In this document: positions 1 through 11,654 of the stretch, in pieces
Layout: every line of letters starts with the position of its first letter
Numbering within the stretch: the first letter of the stretch is position 1
Assembly: GCA_963745645.1 (NCBI GenBank)
Contig: CAVUYD010000009.1
Location: 78,774-142,773, forward strand
Direction: 5' to 3'
Source: an uncultured Actinomycetes bacterium
Lineage (GTDB): Bacteria; Actinomycetota; Acidimicrobiia; IMCC26256; PALSA-610
DNA: 64,000 bases
Notes under the pieces: generated by a model
What the model saw: only the letters and a program-made list of their open reading frames with translations
Told to the model about the DNA's origin: nothing
Database searches by the model: none
Made by a program: the position numbers and the translations under genes

Positions 1-2891
<2,891 letters not shown>

Positions 2892-3013: not shown

Positions 3014-3833
3014 ATGCCACCGCCGAGTCCCGCGACTCCTGATGATGCCCGCCGCGTCGGCGCCGAGGCGGTTCATCGGCTTCGGCGCTCGGTTGCCGAA
3101 CGGATCGCCGACCTGCTCGCACACGATCCCGATCGTGTGGCCAAGGCTGTCGAGCTCGGTCTTCTACGTCGCGAGTGGCTCGAGGATCCGGGCGAAGAGC
3201 ACTTCACGACCGCGGGTCCCATCGACGTGCTGGAACGGCTGCTGGAGCGAACGGTCGAGCAGCGGCCCTCGACGCTCGCCGCGCTTGGCCTCTCGACGAT
3301 TCAGGTCCTCGCGGCCGGGGTCGACGACGCTTCCGGGGAAGGGAGGCTCGACGTCCTCACGGTGGCGTTCACCGATCTCGAGGGCTTCACTCGTTTCACG
3401 GCCCGGAATGGCGACGATGCGGCGAGTCGTCTGCTGGTGGAGCACCAACGGGTGGTCGGGCCCATCGTGCGCAGAGAGGACGGTCGGGTCGTCAAGTCCT
3501 TGGGCGACGGATTTCTGCTCACGTTCCCGAGCCCGCAAGCCGCTGTGTTGGCAGGTCTCGAACTCGCCGACGAACGACCCGAGCCGCTACGCCTGCGCAT
3601 CGGCATGCATCACGGCGAGGTGCATGTACGGACGCGACCACGATGTCGTCGGGAAGGTTGTGAACACCGCGGCGCGAGTCACCGAGGTCGCACGTGGCGG
3701 CGAAGTCCTCGCCACGGCTGCGATTCGCGACGAGGTCGGCGAGCTACCCGGTGTGTCGTTCGGCCGCTTGCGGCATCGCAGGCTCAAGGGCATCGACGAG
3801 CGGGTGCGCGTCTGTCCGATCCGACGCACGTAA
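3014..3833 (+). CDS. Class III adenylate/guanylate cyclase domain protein (frameshift near 3630)
   Basis: VAFTDLEGFT, VKSLGDGFLL, LRIGMHHGEV, then DVVGKVVNTAARV and LKGI in the second frame. Confidence 0.9.
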
Positions 3834-3968
3834 CGACTCGCGAAATCACCGACGCGCGACTCTGCCCTGCCGTGGAACCCGGCCCATCGTCGCTTGCACC
3901 ACTTCTTCGTCGGTGGTGCCCTGAGCGCCGAAGCTCCCATCGCCGCCCGTCGTTCCCGCGCGTGTCGG

Positions 3969-4888
3969 TCAAGCGGCGAACCGGGCCCAGTCGCCCGATT
4001 CGTGGACTGTCCGTCGTCGGCGACGAGGAGACCGGCCGCGTCGTGGGCCGCGAGCAGTGCCGCACCGTCGACCGGACCCGCGAGGAACGCGGCCTTGGCG
4101 AGCACCTCGGCCTGCCAGGCCCGCCCGGTGATGACGGTGACGCCCGCGAGCCCGCTCGCGGCCGGGAGTCCGGTCGCCGGATCGATCAGGTGGTGTCGCG
4201 GCGTCCCGTCCGGCGCGGTCCAGGCGCGCTTCGTGCGCCACGTCGAGGCCACGGCGCCGGCGTCGAGCGCGATGGTGCCGACAACCCGCTCGGCGTCGTT
4301 CGGGTCGGCGATCGCGACGACCCACCCGTCGCCTTCCGGAGCGACGCCCTCGACGCGCAGGTCACCACCGACGTTCACCAGCGCGCCGCGCGCACCCTCG
4401 GCGAGCATGAGCTCGACGACGAGATCCGCGGCGAGGCCCTTGCCGATCCCGCCCGGGTCGATCTCGACTCCGGACCCAGCCACACCGTGCCGGCGATGGG
4501 GTCGAGCGGGATCTGCTCGGCGCCCGAGCGGGTCGACAGGAGCGGGCCGGTGGCGCGGCCATCCGTGCGATGGCGCCCCGCCCGAACATTGCTCGACGGC
4601 AGCGAGCTCGAAGGACCGGTCGTAGCCGGCGGCACGCAGCTCGCGCAGCAGCGTCGGGTCGAAGCGGCCCGCCGTGAGGCGCCAGCCGTCGAGCGCGCGC
4701 TCGATGAGCTCGTAGGTGTCGGGCGAGACGAGCACCGGGACGCCCGGCCGCTCGTTGAGGCGACTGATCTCGCTGTCGGGCCGAAACCGGCTCCAGCGAG
4801 CCTCCAGCTCCTCGAGCCGCGCGACCGCGCGGTCGGCGAGTCCCGACGGGCCGTCGGTCACGATGACGTGCGCAGTGGTGCCCATCAC
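3969..4888 (-). CDS. apbE: FAD:protein FMN transferase (ApbE family)
   Basis: MGTT, WSRFRPDSEISRLN, FDPT, IDPGGIGKG, VNVGGDL, HHLIDPATG, AEVLAKA; probable frameshift near the C-terminus. Confidence 0.93.
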
Positions 4889-4936
4889 TTCGACGATTCG
4901 CTCTTCGTGCTCATGCCACCATCCAACGCCAGAGCC

Positions 4937-4977
4937 CGTGAAGCCCGAGCGAGCGGTGAGATGAAGCTGCCGTGAAG
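4937..4977 (-). promoter_or_regulatory. Putative OmpR/PhoB-type response regulator binding site upstream of apbE
   Basis: Minus strand CTTCACGGCAG CTTCATCTCACCG CTCGCTCGG G CTTCACG; same 41-bp layout as 6835-6875. Confidence 0.6.
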
Positions 4978-4979
4978 GC

Positions 4980-6097
4980 TCAGGCGTCGACTCCGGGCTC
5001 GTCGGAGCGGGCCATCGGGAGCGTGAGGGTGAAGACGGAACCGGCGCCGACGCCGGGGGACGCGACCTCGATGTCGCCGTGGTGCGCGCGGGCGAGTCCC
5101 CGGGCGATCGTCAGCCCGATGCCGCTGCCGCCCGGACGGGCGCACGGGCTCGTGCACCCGGTAGAAGCGGTCGAAGACGAGCTCGAGGTCCTCGGGCGAG
5201 AGCCCGATGCCGGTGTCGCTGACGGCGACCGCGGCGCGGTCGTGGTCGCGGCTCGCCCGCACCTCGACGCGGCCCCCGGTCGGCGTGTAGGTGAGCGCGT
5301 TCCCGAGGAGGTTGGTGAGCACCTGGGCGATCCGGTCGGGATCGACCTCGACGGGCAGCGGTGGCCCGCTCTGCACCCCGAGGCGTCACGCCCTTCTCGT
5401 CGAACTGCGGCCGCAGGCGCTCGGCGGTGGTTGCGACGAGGTCCCCGAGGTCGACGACCCGCAGGTGGAGCACGATCGCGCCTTCCTCGGAGCGCGAGAG
5501 CTCGGCGAGGTCCGAGGCGAGCCGCTGCAGCCGGGATGCCTCCTCGCCGACGGCGACCAGCACCTCTTCGTTCGGCTCGAACACGCCGTCGAGCATGCCT
5601 TCGACGTAGCCCTCGATCGTCGTCAGCGGCGTGCGCATCTCGTGGGCGACCTCCGAGACCAGCCGGGCCCGGCGGCGCTCGGTCGTCTCGAGCTCGACGG
5701 CCAGCCGGTTGACATCGCGCGCCAGCTCGGCGAGCTCGAGCTCGCCCGGCTCGGTGACCCGCTCGTCGTAGTGCCCGTTCGCCAGCCGGCGGGTCGCGTC
5801 GCGCACCTCGCGCACCGGACGGACGATTCTGCGGGCGACGAGCGACGACACGATCGCCGCCGCGCCGAGGCTCGCGGCCAGCGCGATCCAGAGCGATGAG
5901 TCGAGCGAGTCGACGAGCACGTTGTGCGACTCGCGCTCGTCGCCCTCGCCCCCGGACCCGGCGATCGTCTTGATGTCGTCGTCGAAGCGAGCCGGCGCCA
6001 CGACGCGGACGGTCACCGCGAGCGCCGCGAAGACGACGAGCGCGACCAGCGCGTACGAGGCGAACAGGCGAACGTCGAGCCGGCGCCAGAGCCTCAT
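4980..6097 (-). CDS. Membrane sensor histidine kinase (HAMP-HisKA-HATPase, BaeS-like), frameshifted
   Basis: Two TM helices, HAMP, VAHEMRTPLT H-box, NLLGNAL N-box, DTGIG, GSGIGL. Confidence 0.93.
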
Positions 6098-6794
6098 GTC
6101 GGTGATCCCGAGGAACTTGTAGCCCACGCCGCGCACGGTGCCGATCAGCTCCGGATCGTCGGCGCTGTCGCCGAGCTCCTTGCGGATGCTCCGGATGTGC
6201 ACGTCGACGACCCGCTCGTCGCCGAAGAAGTCGAAGCCCCACACCTTCTCGAGCAGCTGGCGGCGGGTGAGCACGCGCCCGGGCGCGCGCGCGAGCGCGA
6301 CGAGGAGGTCGAACTCGAGCGTGCTGAGCGTGACCGCTCGCACCGTTCCGTTCGACCTCACGAGCGCCGACGTCGATGACGAGTCCGTCGAAGATCATCC
6401 GGTCGGCGGTGTCGAGTGCCGGACCGCCGGCGGTCCGGCGCAGCACGGTCTTGATGCGAGCGACGAGCTCGCGGGGGCTGAACGGCTTCGTGACGTAGTC
6501 GTCGGCGCCCACGGAGAGCCCGACGAGCGTGTCGACCTCCTCGGAGCGAGCGGTGAGCAGGATGACCGGGACCTCCGATGTCGGTGCGCAGCCGGCGCAA
6601 GCACCTCGATCCCGTCGGTGCCCGGCATCATCACGTCGAGCACGACGAGATCGGGACGCCAGTCGCGTGCCGTCGTGCAGCGCGGCGTCGCCGTCGCGCG
6701 CTTCGGCGACGTCGAAGCCGTCGCTCTCGAGGTAGCTCCGAACGATCTCCCGGATCCGATCCTCGTCGTCGACGACGAGGATGCGCTTCGCCAC
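6094..6794 (-). CDS. OmpR-family response regulator, frameshifted
   Basis: ILVVDDE, LDVMMPG, GADDYVTKPF, EFDLL, VDVHIRSIRKEL, TVRGVGY. Confidence 0.93.
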
Positions 6795-6834
6795 GGCGGC
6801 CAGGGTACGCCGACACGCTCGGCGACCTCGTCAC

Positions 6835-6875
6835 CTTCACGGACACTTCACGGAGATCTCGCTCGGACCTTCACG
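6835..6875 (+). promoter_or_regulatory. Putative response regulator binding site (11-bp-period direct repeats)
   Basis: CTTCACGGACA CTTCACGGAGAT CTCGCTCGG AC CTTCACG in the divergent intergenic region. Confidence 0.62.
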
Positions 6876-6948
6876 TCCTGCTGTTGTCTGAGGCAACGAA
6901 GTTCGGCAGGCGAGCCGTTCCGGCCTGAAGAACGCAGAGGAGCGAGCG

Positions 6949-7225
6949 ATGCAGAGGAAGACCGCAGTCGCCGCCGCAAGTGCGATCTCGATGAGCCTCG
7001 TCGCCGCGACGATCGCCATCGGCGCGAACCTCGGCGCACTCGGGTTCGCGTCGTCATCGACCGCAGCACCGGTGCGACCGAACGCGGTGATCGTTTCGAC
7101 CAATCCCGCGGCAACGAGCTCGACCCGCACAGGATCGACGCGAGAGCGGCGAGCGCGAGCACGAATCCGGTACGGCAACGACGCCGCGGAGCGTCCAAGG
7201 AGAAGGACACGGATCCGATGACTGA
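6949..7225 (+). CDS. Small secreted or membrane-anchored Ser/Thr-rich protein, probably ending GEGHGSDD after one frameshift
   Basis: GAGGAG RBS, signal-like N-terminus MQRKTAVAAASAISMSLVAA; stop overlaps the next start (ATGACTGA). Confidence 0.6.
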
Positions 7226-7655
7226 CCACGTCAACGACTTCGACCAGGCCGAGCGGATCCGGAGACTCCAGGAGCGCCGTGCGGCTTCTCGTCGCTCGCC
7301 GGTGCCCGCCGCGGCGGAGAGCACCCCGCCGGGCGAGCGCGCGAGTCGGCCGCTCCTGCGGTGTCGCGAACCGCGTCCACGCGGTCGGCCGGACGGAGCC
7401 GGCGGCGTCACCCGGCGGCAGCCACCCGCTGGCTGCTCGGCGGGCTGAGCGTCGCTTCGTTCTTCGGCGATCGCCGGGACCGTGGCCGCCGCGAACGCGA
7501 ACTCCGTCGCGGCGCCGGCCTCGACCAACGCGACCTCGACCGCGCCCACCGCGACGTCGCCGGCCGCAGCGACACCGGCGACGAGCGCGACGAGCGCGAC
7601 GAGCGCGACGACACACGCGACCCGAGCGCCGCACACCACGACACGCGGCAGCTGA
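7218..7655 (+). CDS. Single-TM protein with Ala/Thr/Ser-rich tail ending HTTTRGS (frameshifted)
   Basis: MTDHVNDFDQAERIRRL..., RRRHPAAATRWLLGGLSVASFFAIAG TM, ATS repeats, stop at 7653-7655. Confidence 0.65.
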
Positions 7656-7680
7656 GCCGTCGTCCCAGTAGGCTCCGCGC

Positions 7681-8241
7681 GTGCGTTCACAGACATGGTG
7701 GTACACGGCGCGGGCCGGAGGGATCGTCGCCTGGGCGCTCGCCTCGCTCGCGGTCGTCGGTGGTCTGCAGCTCTCGACGCGGCTCGTTCGCAAGCCCGCG
7801 CCCAGCTGGGTGCTCGACGTACACCGATTCCTCGGCGGCCTCTCGGTGGCGTTCGTCGGCGTGCACCTGCTTGGTCTCGGTCTCGACCACTTCATCGGCT
7901 TCGGGCCGGCAGACTTCCTCGTGCCGTTCGTCTCGAGCTACAAGCCCGCGGCCGTCGCGCTCGGTGTGGTCGGGATGTACCTGCTCCTCGCAATCGAGAT
8001 CACGTCGCTCGCGATGCGCAGGATGCCGCGTCGCACCTGGCACGCGGTGCACCTCACGAGCTTCGTCGTCTTCGTCGTCGCTACGATGCATGGCCTCACA
8101 GCCGGCACCGATCGGCGCAACGCTGTCTTCCAGTGGGCCTGCATTCTCACGGCGGGCCTTGTGCTCATGATGACGCTGGTACGGATCTGGTCGCCGCGTC
8201 GCGCCCCACGTGCGGCATCAAGCGCGAGCGACTCGTCATGA
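7681..8241 (+). CDS. Ferric reductase-like / MsrQ-like heme-b transmembrane protein
   Basis: WYTARAGG, LDVHRFLG, VHLL, WHAVHLTS, MHGLTAGTD: His-containing TM helices. Confidence 0.88.
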   Translation: MRSQTWWYTARAGGIVAWALASLAVVGGLQLSTRLVRKPAPSWVLDVHRFLGGLSVAFVGVHLLGLGLDHFIGFGPADFLVPFVSSYKPAAVALGVVGMYLLLAIEITSLAMRRMPRRTWHAVHLTSFVVFVVATMHGLTAGTDRRNAVFQWACILTAGLVLMMTLVRIWSPRRAPRAASSASDSS

Positions 8242-8256
8242 CGTGCGCCGCGTGCA

Positions 8257-8880
8257 CTACGAGGGCTTGGCCCACGCCCGCACGCCCGCGCGCAGTGAGG
8301 CCTCGGTGGCGGCCACGAAGCGCGCGTCGAGGCGACTGTTCCCGTCCTCGATCCACACGAGCACGGCTTCGATGAGGTACGCGGTCGTCGCGCGCGCCGC
8401 CCAGCGCGCGTGTTCGGGCTCGACGATGGGAGTGAGCGCCTCCTGGGTGATTCGATGCACCTGCGCTCGGGCCGCGGCGGCATACCGCGCGAACTCTGGT
8501 TCTCGTGCCGCATGCCGCCAAAGCACGCGAAACGCCGAGTCGTCGGCCCGCGCCGCCGCGAGCACCGTCGCCGGCGTTGGGCCGTAACGCCCCCTCGCGC
8601 CCTCCACCGACAGGGCTCGTGTGAGGACATCGATGGCGCGCTCGAGCACTGTCTCGTACAGGCACTCCTTCGATTCGAAATGGCGGTACACGATCAAATG
8701 GGAGACGCCGCACGCGCGTGCGATGTCCGCCATGGACGTTGCGTTGTAGCCTCCGCCGGCGAATGCGACAGTCGCGGCGTCGACGATCGCTGTCCGTCGC
8801 TCGGTTCGGCCGAGACGCTTGTGTGGCGCCGACACCATGATCAGGTGTGCCGCTCGGCGAACAGCCGCGCGTTGTTCCAT
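8257..8880 (-). CDS. TetR/AcrR family transcriptional regulator
   Basis: RRTAIVDAA..F...GYNATSMADIARACGVSHLIVYRHFESKECL HTH. Confidence 0.92.
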   Translation of the reverse strand: MEQRAAVRRAAHLIMVSAPHKRLGRTERRTAIVDAATVAFAGGGYNATSMADIARACGVSHLIVYRHFESKECLYETVLERAIDVLTRALSVEGARGRYGPTPATVLAAARADDSAFRVLWRHAAREPEFARYAAAARAQVHRITQEALTPIVEPEHARWAARATTAYLIEAVLVWIEDGNSRLDARFVAATEASLRAGVRAWAKPS

Positions 8881-9341
8881 GACAGGATGCGGCCGTCGGG
8901 AACGAGCTCGATCGTGCTCACCTCGACGTCGTAGCGCGCTCTCGTCGCGCCGGGCATGTCTGCGCGTGGCGTTCGAAATCGCGCGTACTTCTCGTGCAGC
9001 GCCGCCGCGACCTTCTCCGCCAGTGCTGCATCCTCGACAATCGTCGCGCGGCCGGTGATCTGTACGCCCACGAGCTCGATCCAGTAGTCGCCCGACTCGA
9101 CCAGAAACGAGGCACGCGGGTCACGTCGTATGCGCGCGAACTTCCACGTGTGCGCCGGCCCGCTGACATAGATCCGTCGGTCGATCACGACGAACCACAC
9201 CGGCAAAGAGATCGGCACGCCGTCGCGGCGCAGCGTCGTGAGCACGCCCGTGTGTGCGCGCGCGAGCACGTCCCAGGCTTCCTCGGCCGTCAAGCGCACG
9301 CTTCGTACCACGGTGCCTCTCTCGTCCGGGGCGCGATCCAC
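8841..9341 (-). CDS. Pyridoxamine 5'-phosphate oxidase-like (PPOX / F420-binding split barrel) protein
   Basis: GVLTTLRRDGVPISLPVWF, KFARIRRDPRASFLVESG, LSWNN. Confidence 0.88.
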   Translation of the reverse strand: MDRAPDERGTVVRSVRLTAEEAWDVLARAHTGVLTTLRRDGVPISLPVWFVVIDRRIYVSGPAHTWKFARIRRDPRASFLVESGDYWIELVGVQITGRATIVEDAALAEKVAAALHEKYARFRTPRADMPGATRARYDVEVSTIELVPDGRILSWNNARLFAERHT

Positions 9342-9379
9342 GAGCGATGTTTGTTACATGGCGATGTTACTCTCGGGTC

Positions 9380-10738
9380 GTGAAGTTCGGCTTGTTCTAC
9401 GAGCACCAAGTGCCCCGTCCATGGCAGGACGGCGACGAACGACGAGTGTTCGGGGAGGCGCTCGAGCAGATCGAGTTCGCGGACCGCCTCGGCTTCGAGA
9501 CCGTCTGGCTCGTCGAGCACCACTTCCTCGAGGAGTACTCGCACTCGAGCGCTCCGGAGCTGTTTCTCGCGGCGGCCTCGCAGCGCACGCGCCGGATCCG
9601 CCTCGGGCACGGCATCGTGCACTCCCTACCGGCGATCAATCATCCGGCGCGCGTGGCCGAGCGCATCGCGACCCTGGACCTGCTCTCCGATGGACGCGTC
9701 GAGTTCGGCACCGGCGAGGGGTCCGCGGCTGCAGAGCTCGATGCGTTCGGCATCGATCCCACGGCCAAACGCGACATGTGGGAGGAAGGTGTGCGTGTCA
9801 CGTTGCGGTGTCTCACCGAGACCCCGTTCACCGGTCATGTCGGACCGCACGTTCGGATGCCTCCCCGGAACGTCGTCCCCAAGCCGTTCCAGCGGCCGCA
9901 TCCGCCCGTGTGGGTCGCGTGCAGTCGCCGCGAGACGATTCGCCTCGCGGCGCAGAAGGGCATCGGTGCGCTCGGGTTTGCGTTCTTCGATCCGGAGGAG
10001 GCGCGGACTTGGGTCGATGACTACTACTCGACGCTGGCGAACGAGGGCGTCCCGATCGGCGACGCGGTAAATGCCAATCTCGCGTGCGTGACATCGTTCT
10101 TCTGCCACCCGGATGAGGACGAGGCGATCCGACGTGGGGCGGAGGGTGTGAACTTCATCGGCTACTCCCTCGGGCACTACTACGTGTTCGGCAGACACCG
10201 GCCCGGGTTCGGAAGTCTCTGGGAGGATTACCAGCAACGTCGCGCCGAACACGGTTACGACCCGGACGCGGTCGCGCTCGCCGCGGGGAGGAGTGACCGG
10301 CTCGGTGCGAAGGCGGTTGCCGAGGGGACCAGTGGTTTGCGTGGCGCGATGGGCACACCCGACCAGGTGCGCGACTACCTGCGCCGTTACGAGGCCTGCG
10401 GGGTCGACCAAGTGATCCTCTCCTGCGCGGCGGGTCGCAATCGGCACGAACACATCATGGAGACGCTGGATCTGTTTGCGCGCGAGGTGATGCCGGAATT
10501 CGTCGAACGGGCCGAACAACACGAGCGCGACAAAGCTGCGCGTCTCGAACCGGTGATCGCCGCGGTGATGGCCCGCAAGCCGGCTCGCGATCACCCGGCG
10601 CTCGACTCCGACTACGAGATCCCCGCGTATCCCCGCCTCGATGCCGACCGTGACGAGAGCGGCAGATTCCACCGCTGGCTCGACGACTACGGCGCACGTA
10701 TCGCCGCCGGTGAAGACGTCAGCAAGCGGCTCGCCTGA
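9380..10738 (+). CDS. LLM-class (luciferase-like) flavin-dependent oxidoreductase
   Basis: KFGLFYEHQ, WLVEHHFLEEYSHSSAPE, RVAERIATLDLLSDGRVEFGTG, PKPFQRPHPPVW. Confidence 0.93.
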   Translation: MKFGLFYEHQVPRPWQDGDERRVFGEALEQIEFADRLGFETVWLVEHHFLEEYSHSSAPELFLAAASQRTRRIRLGHGIVHSLPAINHPARVAERIATLDLLSDGRVEFGTGEGSAAAELDAFGIDPTAKRDMWEEGVRVTLRCLTETPFTGHVGPHVRMPPRNVVPKPFQRPHPPVWVACSRRETIRLAAQKGIGALGFAFFDPEEARTWVDDYYSTLANEGVPIGDAVNANLACVTSFFCHPDEDEAIRRGAEGVNFIGYSLGHYYVFGRHRPGFGSLWEDYQQRRAEHGYDPDAVALAAGRSDRLGAKAVAEGTSGLRGAMGTPDQVRDYLRRYEACGVDQVILSCAAGRNRHEHIMETLDLFAREVMPEFVERAEQHERDKAARLEPVIAAVMARKPARDHPALDSDYEIPAYPRLDADRDESGRFHRWLDDYGARIAAGEDVSKRLA

Positions 10739-10856
10739 GAACGGAGCGGCGTGAGTCGTGACCACGGTGGGACCTTCGCCTCTAACTCCGTGTTGGCTGC
10801 GCGGGGCACAATTGCGGCGTCGCGAACGAGTGTCCCGTGGCAAATGGAGGACATCA

Positions 10857-11297
10857 ATGACAGCAACCATTGACGCGCAGTCGATCGGACCGGTCGATGT
10901 AGCCGTGATCGCCTTCGTTGGTGATGCGTTCACCGGTGAGCTCGCACCGGCACTGCGAGAGTTGATTGACTCCGGCACGGTCCGGATCATCGACCTGGCG
11001 TTCGTCCGCAAGGCGCTCGACGGAACGACATCGTCGGTCGAAGTCATTGACACCGACATCGCAGCCGCGTTCGGCGGGCTGGAGGACGAGCAGCAGGATC
11101 TCCTGAACGACGATGACCTCGTCATGATCGCAGAGTCGCTGGAGCCCGCGAGCGCTGCACTCGTCATCGTCTGGGAGAACTGTTGGGCGGCGAAGTTCGC
11201 CCAAGCGGTGCGACGGGCGAACGGGATGCTCGTGAGCCAAGACCGGATACCGCACGAGACCGTCGTGCGCGCCATCGAAGCACTGCAGAGCGAGTAG
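10857..11297 (+). CDS. DUF6325-like actinobacterial protein
   Basis: GPVDVAVIAF.GDAFTGELAPAL..L...GTVRIIDL, LVIVWENCWA; GGAGG RBS. Confidence 0.8.
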   Translation: MTATIDAQSIGPVDVAVIAFVGDAFTGELAPALRELIDSGTVRIIDLAFVRKALDGTTSSVEVIDTDIAAAFGGLEDEQQDLLNDDDLVMIAESLEPASAALVIVWENCWAAKFAQAVRRANGMLVSQDRIPHETVVRAIEALQSE

Positions 11298-11306
11298 GAG
11301 AGATCA

Positions 11307-11654
11307 ATGCCTCGTCGAATGGGACGTCCCGGGCTCATGGGCACCATGGCCCGCACCGCGGTGATCGCGGGGACCGCGACCGCCGTGTCCGGCAGCATGC
11401 GGCGCAACCAACAGCAGAAGGCTGCTGCGCAACAGGCCTCAACGGCCGACCAACAGCAAGCGATGGTGGACCAGGCTGCAGCGCAGGCCGCGCAACAAGT
11501 CCAAGCACAGCAGGCCGCAGCAGCCGCGCCGGCTCCGAACGCCGCCGGCGATCCGGTCGCGAAGATCCGCGAGCTCGGCGAGCTGAAGCAGCAAGGCTTG
11601 CTCAGCGATGAAGAATTCACGGCCGCGAAGGCGCAAATCCTCGGGACGGCATGA
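11307..11654 (+). CDS. SHOCT domain-containing protein
   Basis: ARTAVIAGTATAV, Gln/Ala linker, LGELKQQGLLSDEEFTAAKAQIL. Confidence 0.88.
   Translation: MPRRMGRPGLMGTMARTAVIAGTATAVSGSMRRNQQQKAAAQQASTADQQQAMVDQAAAQAAQQVQAQQAAAAAPAPNAAGDPVAKIRELGELKQQGLLSDEEFTAAKAQILGTA

Follow-up and report, generated by a model that had tools for sequence, protein, structure and literature searches.

A conserved C-terminal tag on a small membrane anchor protein as a candidate ApbE flavinylation site in an actinobacterial cytochrome cluster

We analyzed a 64,000-nucleotide (nt) stretch of DNA (the window; contig CAVUYD010000009.1, positions 78,774 to 142,773) from the genome of an uncultured soil Acidimicrobiia bacterium (GCA_963745645.1, here G000). 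Positions 3969 to 8241 hold a gene cluster for an ApbE homolog, a two-component system, two small open reading frames (ORF1 and ORF2), and a ferric-reductase-like membrane cytochrome. ApbE is an FAD:protein FMN transferase that moves flavin mononucleotide (FMN) from flavin adenine dinucleotide (FAD) to proteins. Its known targets are folded flavin-binding domains, namely FMN_bind, NqrB/RnfD, DUF2271, DUF3570, Flavodoxin_4, and FMN_red. ORF2 (7218 to 7655, plus strand) encodes a bitopic anchor protein, and its C terminus carries a conserved tag, H-T-T-T-R-G-S, whose terminal Ser is the proposed FMN acceptor. From sequence comparison and structure prediction, we see about an even chance that ORF2 is a minimal, fold-less ApbE substrate that is tethered beside the cytochrome and replaces the usual membrane-anchored FMN_bind protein. 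We present the locus as a variant, linked to a two-component system, of the ApbE/MsrQ-like clusters for electron transfer in Actinobacteria, with ORF2 as a candidate new substrate class.

The window genome comprises 3.79 Mb in 9 contigs and is 60.66% complete by marker genes. A sister genome of the same genus (G001) is 94% complete, and its intact proteins were used for all functional analysis. The two copies of the locus are 90.3% identical in nucleotides over window positions 3857 to 8289.

ORF2 and its C-terminal tag

When the G001 ORF2 was searched against 5.8 billion proteins, 61 homologs emerged, which are named "hypothetical" at most. None of the 61 has a Pfam domain. Neither ORF1 nor ORF2 has a Pfam or NCBIfam match at E ≤ 0.1, and a paralogous small protein is also without a family. 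An ORF2 profile run against 1.84 billion cluster representatives gave 175 matches at E ≤ 1e-3, 51 at ≤ 1e-10, and 18 at ≤ 1e-30. By these homologs, ORF2 is a real, conserved protein of an unnamed family.

The 59-row alignment has four blocks. The first is a basic N terminus, MTDxxNxxDQAERIRRLQERRAAS. The second is RRRHPAAATRW, which runs into a hydrophobic transmembrane (TM) helix. The third is a variable Ala/Thr/Ser/Pro linker that holds a short conserved A-T-P, and the fourth is the C-terminal heptapeptide H-T-T-T-R-G-S, directly followed by the stop codon. Given the basic flank of the helix, the positive-inside rule would place the N terminus of ORF2 inside the cell and its tail outside.

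The last seven residues are the most conserved part of ORF2, because 55 of the 61 homologs end in [H/N]-[ST]-x-[ST]-x-[G/A]-S. All of those 55 have Ser as the last residue. The six homologs outside this pattern have two shifted ends, one truncated end, one end with four extra residues, and two VTATRGS ends. In the right-aligned sequences, pairwise identity is 0.57 to 1.0 over the last seven columns, compared with about 0.1 to 0.3 in the linker. The initial annotation had proposed that this protein carries FMN on a degenerate C-terminal motif, and that a sequence logo of small ORFs beside apbE and ferric-reductase-like genes would reveal a conserved end. Such an end is indeed present, since [S/T]-x-[G/A]-S-stop closes 57 of the 61 close homologs.

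The tag partly resembles the known target of ApbE. The minimal ApbE motif has seven residues, D-x-x-[S/T]-G-A-[S/T], and FMN is attached to the last of them (PMC12052999). When that residue is numbered 0, the 55 tags agree with the motif at position -3 (Thr in 52, Ser in 3), at position -1 (Gly in 47, Ala in 8), and at position 0 (Ser in 55/55). Position -6 varies in the wider family, where V, P, A, and D occur, and only [ST]-x-[G/A]-S is general. Mutation of the canonical motif from D to A has only a minor effect, and G-to-A or A-to-V changes bring flavinylation down to about 50% (PMC12052999).

We then compared 41 related genomes, among which cytochrome homologs occur in 33, ApbE in 32, and FMN_bind in 14. 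Forty-two loci were taken around the cytochrome homologs. Their usual gene order is small anchor, ApbE, and cytochrome on one strand, and the stop codon of the anchor gene abuts or overlaps the ApbE start. In G000, G001, and a third genome (G035), ApbE instead lies downstream of a divergent regulator-kinase pair. An anchor protein with a basic flank, one hydrophobic helix, and a Pro/Ala/Thr-rich tail directly precedes ApbE or the cytochrome in 32 of the 42 loci. Of the 10 loci without an anchor, three are contig ends or a 2-kb contig, and two belong to low-completeness genomes.

These anchors have two kinds of ends. Class A ends, [ST]-x-[G/A/P]-S, occur at 25 loci, where 22 are exact and 3 carry one to three added residues. 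Examples are HTTTRGS, HTMTRGS, VTRTRGS, HTRSGGS, DTSSHGS, HTSTHAS, HTSSQAS, TTTSGGS, IQTGGS, and TTTGPS. Class B ends, C-x-G-[ST]-K-C-P/H after poly-Pro, occur at seven loci (L032, L033, L037, L041, L048, L050, and L053), and their Cys pair suggests a disulfide or a metal site. Among 134 further matches to the ORF2 profile, 84 end in class A (up to three extra residues allowed) and 9 in the strict Cys pattern. Read by eye, at least 9 more end in C-x-G-[ST]-x-C(P). Three genomes carry a second cassette. The one in G000 (G000:C2:418900-427500, L065) has the compact order of an anchor ending in DTSSHGS-stop, ApbE, and a ferric-reductase-like protein. The one in G001 (L061) is likewise compact, and the anchor of the one in G035 (L022) ends in HTRTRGS.

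An ORF2-profile scan with one genome per species yielded 44 loci, from uncultured Acidimicrobiia/Actinomycetes metagenome-assembled genomes and a few with other labels. Of these loci, we followed 39 (L071-L109). The ORF with the tag comes immediately ahead of the cytochrome gene in 39/39, a divergent regulator-kinase pair is present in 38/39, and ApbE follows the kinase in 24/39.

The ApbE, its predicted complex with the tail, and competing explanations

The apbE gene spans 3969 to 4930 on the minus strand, as mapped from the intact G001 ortholog. The initial annotation began the cluster at 3969, and that position is the stop of apbE. The window ApbE matches PF02424 at E 7.9e-56 (189.9 bits, profile positions 1 to 259 of 266), and the PDB relatives of the G001 ApbE are ApbE/Ftp structures (E 2.4e-26 to 2.6e-15). 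It belongs to a signal-less group that we call type 1. A hydrophobic 15-mer (Kyte-Doolittle ≥ 1.6) was found within 80 in-frame residues upstream in 0 of 32 type-1 ApbEs, and the N termini were also read by eye. With no N-terminal signal found, the type-1 ApbE looks cytoplasmic. A signal or lipoprotein peptide is typical but not obligatory, and cytosolic ApbEs do exist (PMC12052999).

The genomes searched offer this ApbE no known substrate. FMN_bind (PF04205) has 0 matches in G000, G001, and G035. The initial annotation had noted that no canonical FMN-binding-domain gene is present, and this extends from the cluster to the whole of G000, at its 60.66% completeness, and to its 94% complete sister. 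Eighteen of the 32 ApbE-positive relatives are also without any FMN_bind match. NqrB/RnfD and DUF2271 were not above the cut-off in G000, G001, G035, G028, and G015, of which the last four are 94 to 99% complete. Two sub-threshold PF03116 matches, in G000 only (19.1 and 18.4 bits; cut-off, 27.7), were counted as not found. The type-1 ApbE has no known substrate family in the genomes searched.

Where FMN_bind does occur, it has an ApbE of its own. All 14 FMN_bind genes of the relatives adjoin a separate, divergent type-2 ApbE, and type-1 ApbE never neighbors FMN_bind. The six FMN_bind loci inspected (L025-L030) each encode an NAD-fused ferric reductase, an FMN_bind protein that is anchored N-terminally and contains VSGATYTS, and ApbE. 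In a maximum-likelihood tree, a long branch (support, 100/100) divides type-1 from type-2 ApbEs, and the seven Cys-class cassettes have ApbEs of a single clade (100/99). These clades fit the co-inheritance of each ApbE with its neighbor, but function is not thereby shown.

We predicted the structure of a complex of ApbE (28-row alignment), ORF2 residues 103 to 142 (59-row alignment), FAD, and Mg. The complex scored 0.93 (0.92, 0.93, and 0.93 in three runs), and the best of three controls, which were unrelated natural proteins and included no other Thr/Ala-rich tails, scored 0.11. Of 80 solved complexes, 58 reach the mark that we used, as do 2 of 110 mismatched pairs; these counts are only a rough guide here because we supplied our own alignments and included small molecules. 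The three runs share at least 79% of their contacts, and the partner has a predicted local distance difference test score (pLDDT) of at least 62. ORF2 residues 114 to 123, around A-T-P, and 133 to 142, which include the tag, touch ApbE residues 17 to 23, 164, 184 to 191, 197 to 208, 221 to 235, and 263 to 273. The lowest-error pairs join H136-T139 to ApbE residues 203 to 208, 184 to 186, 21 to 23, and 227 to 229. The contacted ranges include the family-invariant M16/G17, K164, G188-D190 (the GGD motif), and R235. The prediction supports binding of the ORF2 tail to the type-1 ApbE.

The presumed redox partner is the membrane cytochrome (186 amino acids [aa]; 7681 to 8241, plus strand), which is ferric-reductase-like or MsrQ-like and intact in the window. 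Its PF01794 match scores 31.4 bits for the window copy and 33.0 for the G001 ortholog (cut-off, 28). H48, H62, H124, and H137 are invariant in 52 sequences. An AF2 model has five long helices (pLDDT 91.6; pTM 0.86), and the His pairs lie on helices 42 to 68 and 117 to 140. Two His pairs on two helices are what would be expected for two b hemes. In a Foldseek search of the PDB, the top rows for this model were STEAP2, SpNOX, STEAP1, and the NOX5 TM domain, with TMq 0.49 to 0.63 and prob 1.00 but weak E values of 0.025 to 0.17 (none ≤ 0.001). Neither Pfam nor the model shows an NAD/FAD domain in the cytochrome.

These elements fit the following scheme. ORF2 would consist of a cytoplasmic basic N terminus, one TM helix, a disordered Ala/Thr/Pro stalk of about 50 residues, and the tag H-T-T-T-R-G-S-COOH. 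The dedicated type-1 ApbE would bind the tag, as the controlled structure prediction indicates, and would move FMN from FAD to the terminal Ser. Since this ApbE has no signal peptide, flavinylation would therefore occur in the cytoplasm, before export of the tail. The tethered flavin might then take electrons from the outer heme of the adjacent cytochrome, a step suggested by gene adjacency and by the role of FMN_bind proteins in canonical clusters. Finally, the flavin might hand electrons to an extracytoplasmic acceptor; metal ions on the His/Asp-rich tail of ORF1 are one speculative candidate. The swinging redox arm that the initial annotation envisaged corresponds to the cytochrome step, and gene adjacency is the argument for it. 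We also entertain, tentatively and at less than even chances, a fuller version in which the ORF2 relatives are a natural flavin tag and the first fold-less class of ApbE substrates. In that version, a dedicated cytoplasmic ApbE clade would recognize the non-canonical heptapeptide (family core [ST]-x-G/A-S) and place FMN on its C-terminal Ser, the modified tail would be exported, and the tethered flavin would serve as a mobile one- or two-electron shuttle from the cytochrome to extracellular acceptors, possibly ORF1-held metal, under a two-component sensor.

The conserved tag, the predicted binding to ApbE, and the lack of a known substrate thus speak for the substrate reading that the initial annotation had put forward. 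Several observations weigh against it, beyond the broken ORF2 frame of the window copy that is described below. The tag is not canonical: position -6 is His in 53/55 and Asn in 2/55, with no canonical Asp, and position -2 is Arg in 41, Lys in 7, His in 4, and Gly in 3 of the 55, with no fixed Gly. ORF2 has no flavin-binding fold to shield the cofactor. The Cys pair at class B termini would fit a thiol- or metal-based chemistry better than a flavin. ApbE is not beside the kinase in 15 of the 39 profile loci (three at contig edges), and it was found elsewhere in the genome in 10/10 of those genomes that were searched. The controls of the complex prediction do not bear on specificity for the heptapeptide itself. 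Finally, a cytoplasmic-looking ApbE conflicts with an outward-facing ORF2 tail. The same conflict between a signal-less ApbE and an anchored FMN_bind protein is seen in the canonical pairs of the relatives (L025-L030), which softens the objection but does not remove it. The puzzle of a signal-less ApbE with an anchored substrate is therefore general in this lineage.

The active site of the type-1 ApbE speaks both ways. In favor of the substrate reading, the invariant His-His (H246/H247), GGD, the Lys of GxGKG, and the Ser/Thr of ATS are all retained. However, the position of the triad Asp (G001 residue 275) is Glu in 30 and Asp in 2 of the 32 type-1 ApbEs. We take the Thr four residues after the triad Asp to be a Mg ligand, as in the Treponema pallidum Ftp structures; the aligned position (G001 residue 279) is Lys in 27/32 and Thr in 5/32, which may mean an altered metal dependence. 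The type-1 sequence reads W-x-A-E-x-x-A-K-A where the canonical one reads A-D-A-x-[AS]-T-A, and type-2 ApbEs keep ADA[YL]ATA (6/6). The residues described for the catalytic center are Ser241/His257/Asp285 in Vibrio cholerae numbering (PMC12052999). With altered Glu and Lys sites, the chemistry of the type-1 ApbE could therefore differ.

In a first alternative, the tail binds the ApbE-like protein in some role other than that of an FMN acceptor. ORF2 could be a membrane tether that brings ApbE-bound FAD to the cytochrome as a cytoplasmic electron input, or another group could be attached to it. A tether would agree with the complex that passes its controls, with the Glu and Lys substitutions, and with the missing signal peptide, and a cytochrome without an NAD/FAD domain needs a cytoplasmic partner. 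However, the strongly basic N-flank of the TM helix puts the tail outside, away from a cytoplasmic ApbE, and a permanent tether is no easier to arrange than modification before export. The tag also mirrors the acceptor motif in its invariant terminal Ser and its [ST] at -3, and the catalytic His, GGD, and Lys are kept. We judge this alternative unlikely.

A second alternative, which we hold to be no less improbable, is that the tag is unrelated to ApbE. It might be a peptide that docks on the outward side of the cytochrome, it might bind metal, or it might signal processing or glycosylation, and the real substrate would lie elsewhere, for example in the cytochrome loop H-G-x-T-A-G-T-D. The conserved His at -6 in the window's own subfamily, the two Cys of class B ends, the His/Asp/Glu-rich ORF1 tails, and the loci with a nonadjacent ApbE could all be read in this way. 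The cytochrome also has an invariant G142 and a near-invariant D144 just after the outer-heme ligand H137. Against this, the -6 His is lost in the wider family, the anchor stop meets the ApbE start in most cassettes, and the docking prediction favors ApbE. We ranked the cytochrome loop low as a flavinylation site because the NAD-fused reductases with a normal FMN_bind partner share the G-[ST]-D element, which suggests a feature of the fold.

The cluster in the window and its frame breaks

Genes in the window were called from a six-frame ORF listing and a Pfam scan. The region has a G+C content of about 70%. The gene list of the initial annotation is confirmed, with apbE, a kinase, and a regulator on the minus strand and two small ORFs and the Ferric_reduct protein on the plus strand. 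The sensor histidine kinase (4980 to 6097, minus strand; 369 aa in G001) has two TM segments and HAMP, HisKA, and HATPase_c domains. The response regulator (6094 to 6846, minus strand; 248 aa in G001) has Response_reg and Trans_reg_C domains, so the pair is of the OmpR/PhoB type. The intact G001 kinase and regulator had no NCBIfam equivalog match above the cut-off, and many matches below it.

ORF1 (6949 to 7225, plus strand) was identified from the ORF listing and the comparison with G001, and its stop overlaps the ORF2 start in an ATGA-type junction. It had been described as Ser/Thr-rich, but a better description is that of a small protein with a signal anchor and a C terminus rich in His, Asp, and Glu. 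This enrichment is milder in the window and in G001, where the protein ends in GEGHGSDD-stop, than in relatives. ORF1-like signal-anchored proteins precede the anchor in relatives, for example at L031:1758-2624, L039, L040, L044, and L045, and have strongly His/Asp/Glu-rich ends such as HEDEHEDDHYEGRDDDD. A strict scan found them at 6 of the 42 loci, and others were seen by eye in L021, L022, L035, L038, L054, L060, and L066. It is plausible from their composition that these tails are metal binders. Together with the two-component system, they suggest a metal-linked role for the locus, which we offer as a lead only. A weak further lead, which is not evidence on this locus, is that a Bifidobacterium apbE transposon mutant was impaired under ferrous-iron chelation (PMC5449479).

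All six genes are intact in G001 (ApbE, 320 aa; kinase, 369; regulator, 248; ORF1, about 91; ORF2, 142; cytochrome, 186), but most are broken in the window. A global alignment of the two copies shows 25 indel events over 4.4 kb, almost all of 1 nt. The regulator has six 1-nt insertions, the kinase two indels, ORF1 one, ORF2 two, apbE several, and the cytochrome gene none. Relative to G001, ORF2 has lost 1 nt near 7336 and gained 1 nt near 7466. Read from ATG 7218, it terminates at 7446 to 7448; the TM segment is encoded in a different frame, and the frame of the tail is open again from 7482. Therefore, the protein proposed at 7218 to 7655 is not a single open frame in the window. Its HTTTRGS-stop tail does hold, as frame 7482 to 7655, and is intact in G001. 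The tag and stop codon occupy 7632 to 7655, with the seven codons at 7632 to 7652 and TGA at 7653 to 7655.

The other breaks are similar. ORF1 has its 1-nt insertion near 7137. In the kinase, 1-nt insertions at about 5134 and about 5382 divide the gene over three frames, so that HAMP, HisKA, and HATPase_c fall in three separate ORFs. The regulator is likewise spread over three frames, with its Response_reg and Trans_reg_C matches in different ones, and 1-nt indels in apbE, for example near 4007, put its C-terminal end in another frame.

Frameshifts of this number raise the question of whether the cluster consists of decaying pseudogenes in this organism. The 25 events, the broken state of most genes, and the low marker completeness of the genome would be compatible with real decay. 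However, the extra bases at 6339/6340, 6582/6584, 6602, 6677/6678, 6798, 7137, and 7466 are absent from contigs of four independent soil metagenome runs, among them 5/6 of the extra bases of the regulator. These contigs are from relatives that are 90 to 99% alike and not the same strain, hence no proof; the four are DNA runs that share only 5 to 9% of sampled words, no RNA run turned up beside them, and their contigs bear on neither the 7336 deletion nor the 6106 insertion. A gene for pyruvate:ferredoxin/flavodoxin oxidoreductase (POR_N, POR, EKR, and Fer4) at window positions 1 to 2882 on the minus strand is likewise split over several frames. We read the pattern as one of systematic single-base error, because the genome has 9 contigs yet a low marker score and because other genes of the window are broken too. 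The corrected frames also remain highly similar to G001. Because the metagenome relatives lack the extra bases, we conclude with high confidence that the frame breaks are assembly errors peculiar to this assembly, and we consider decay quite improbable.

The surroundings of the cluster also differ between the sister genomes. In the window, five genes at 8257 to 11654 (a TetR regulator, a PNPOx-like protein, a luciferase-like monooxygenase, DUF6325, and SHOCT) precede an alpha/beta-hydrolase gene. In G001 the hydrolase gene follows the cytochrome almost directly, so there has been an insertion or deletion of about 3.4 kb. On the other side, an ORF at 3014 to 3850 on the plus strand has an adenylate/guanylate cyclase catalytic domain (PF00211, E 2.9e-07) and is convergent with the 3' end of apbE. 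Its frame extends antisense over apbE, probably because of another frameshift.

Comparison with known flavinylation systems

If ORF2 is an ApbE substrate, the recognition rules of ApbE would be wider than thought, since neither the Asp nor a fixed Gly would be needed and the acceptor could be the final residue. It would also give a role to ApbE in many soil Actinomycetota that have no known substrate, here the 18 ApbE-positive relatives without FMN_bind. It would provide a simple model of a tethered flavin shuttle at the Gram-positive surface, and one would have to ask how a tail modified in the cytoplasm reaches the outside. As part of an orthogonal enzyme/tag pair, the tag could also be useful for protein labeling. 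In the literature on ApbE and flavinylation that we searched, we found no description of natural small tagged proteins of the ORF2 type, although the supplementary tables of PMC8238504 might list such clusters.

The known systems with which we compare the locus are PMC12052999, PMC9400968, PMC8238504, and Huang et al. 2024 (bioRxiv 10.1101/2024.03.13.584918). Engineered tags of 12 residues are flavinylated in full whichever terminus of MBP, ADH, or SUMO carries them (PMC9400968), and in natural FMN_red proteins the flavinylated site lies on a C-terminal extension that is unstructured (Huang et al. 2024). Because both kinds of site are modified, a fold-less terminal acceptor is chemically plausible.

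The closest relatives of the locus are the MsrQ-like flavinylation clusters of Actinobacteria (Meheust et al. 2021, eLife, PMC8238504). They combine the same PF01794 bis-heme protein with apbE, and extracytosolic electron transfer has been proposed for them. The canonical form of these clusters is also present in relatives of this organism. In contrast, the locus described here has no FMN-binding-domain gene, its cytochrome has no NAD-binding domain, and its ApbE belongs to a separate, signal-less clade.

The engineered Flavin-tag (PMC12052999, PMC9400968) has the same kind of seven-residue unit that ends in the acceptor, and it is likewise terminal and fold-less. However, the ORF2 tag is natural, has His at -6 and no fixed Gly at -2, and places its putative acceptor at the very last residue, with a free carboxylate. 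FMN_red proteins have the same type of site as that proposed for ORF2, on a disordered C-terminal extension, but their tail delivers FMN into an existing flavin-binding domain, whereas ORF2 has no folded domain. The class B termini resemble DUF4266 of the DsbD-type clusters (PMC8238504), which is small and secreted and has a C-terminal CXC, a motif suggestive of redox function, as its sole conserved feature. We liken the two by description only, and both the motif and the partners (DsbD, DUF3570, and a thioredoxin-like protein) differ from those of the anchors described here.

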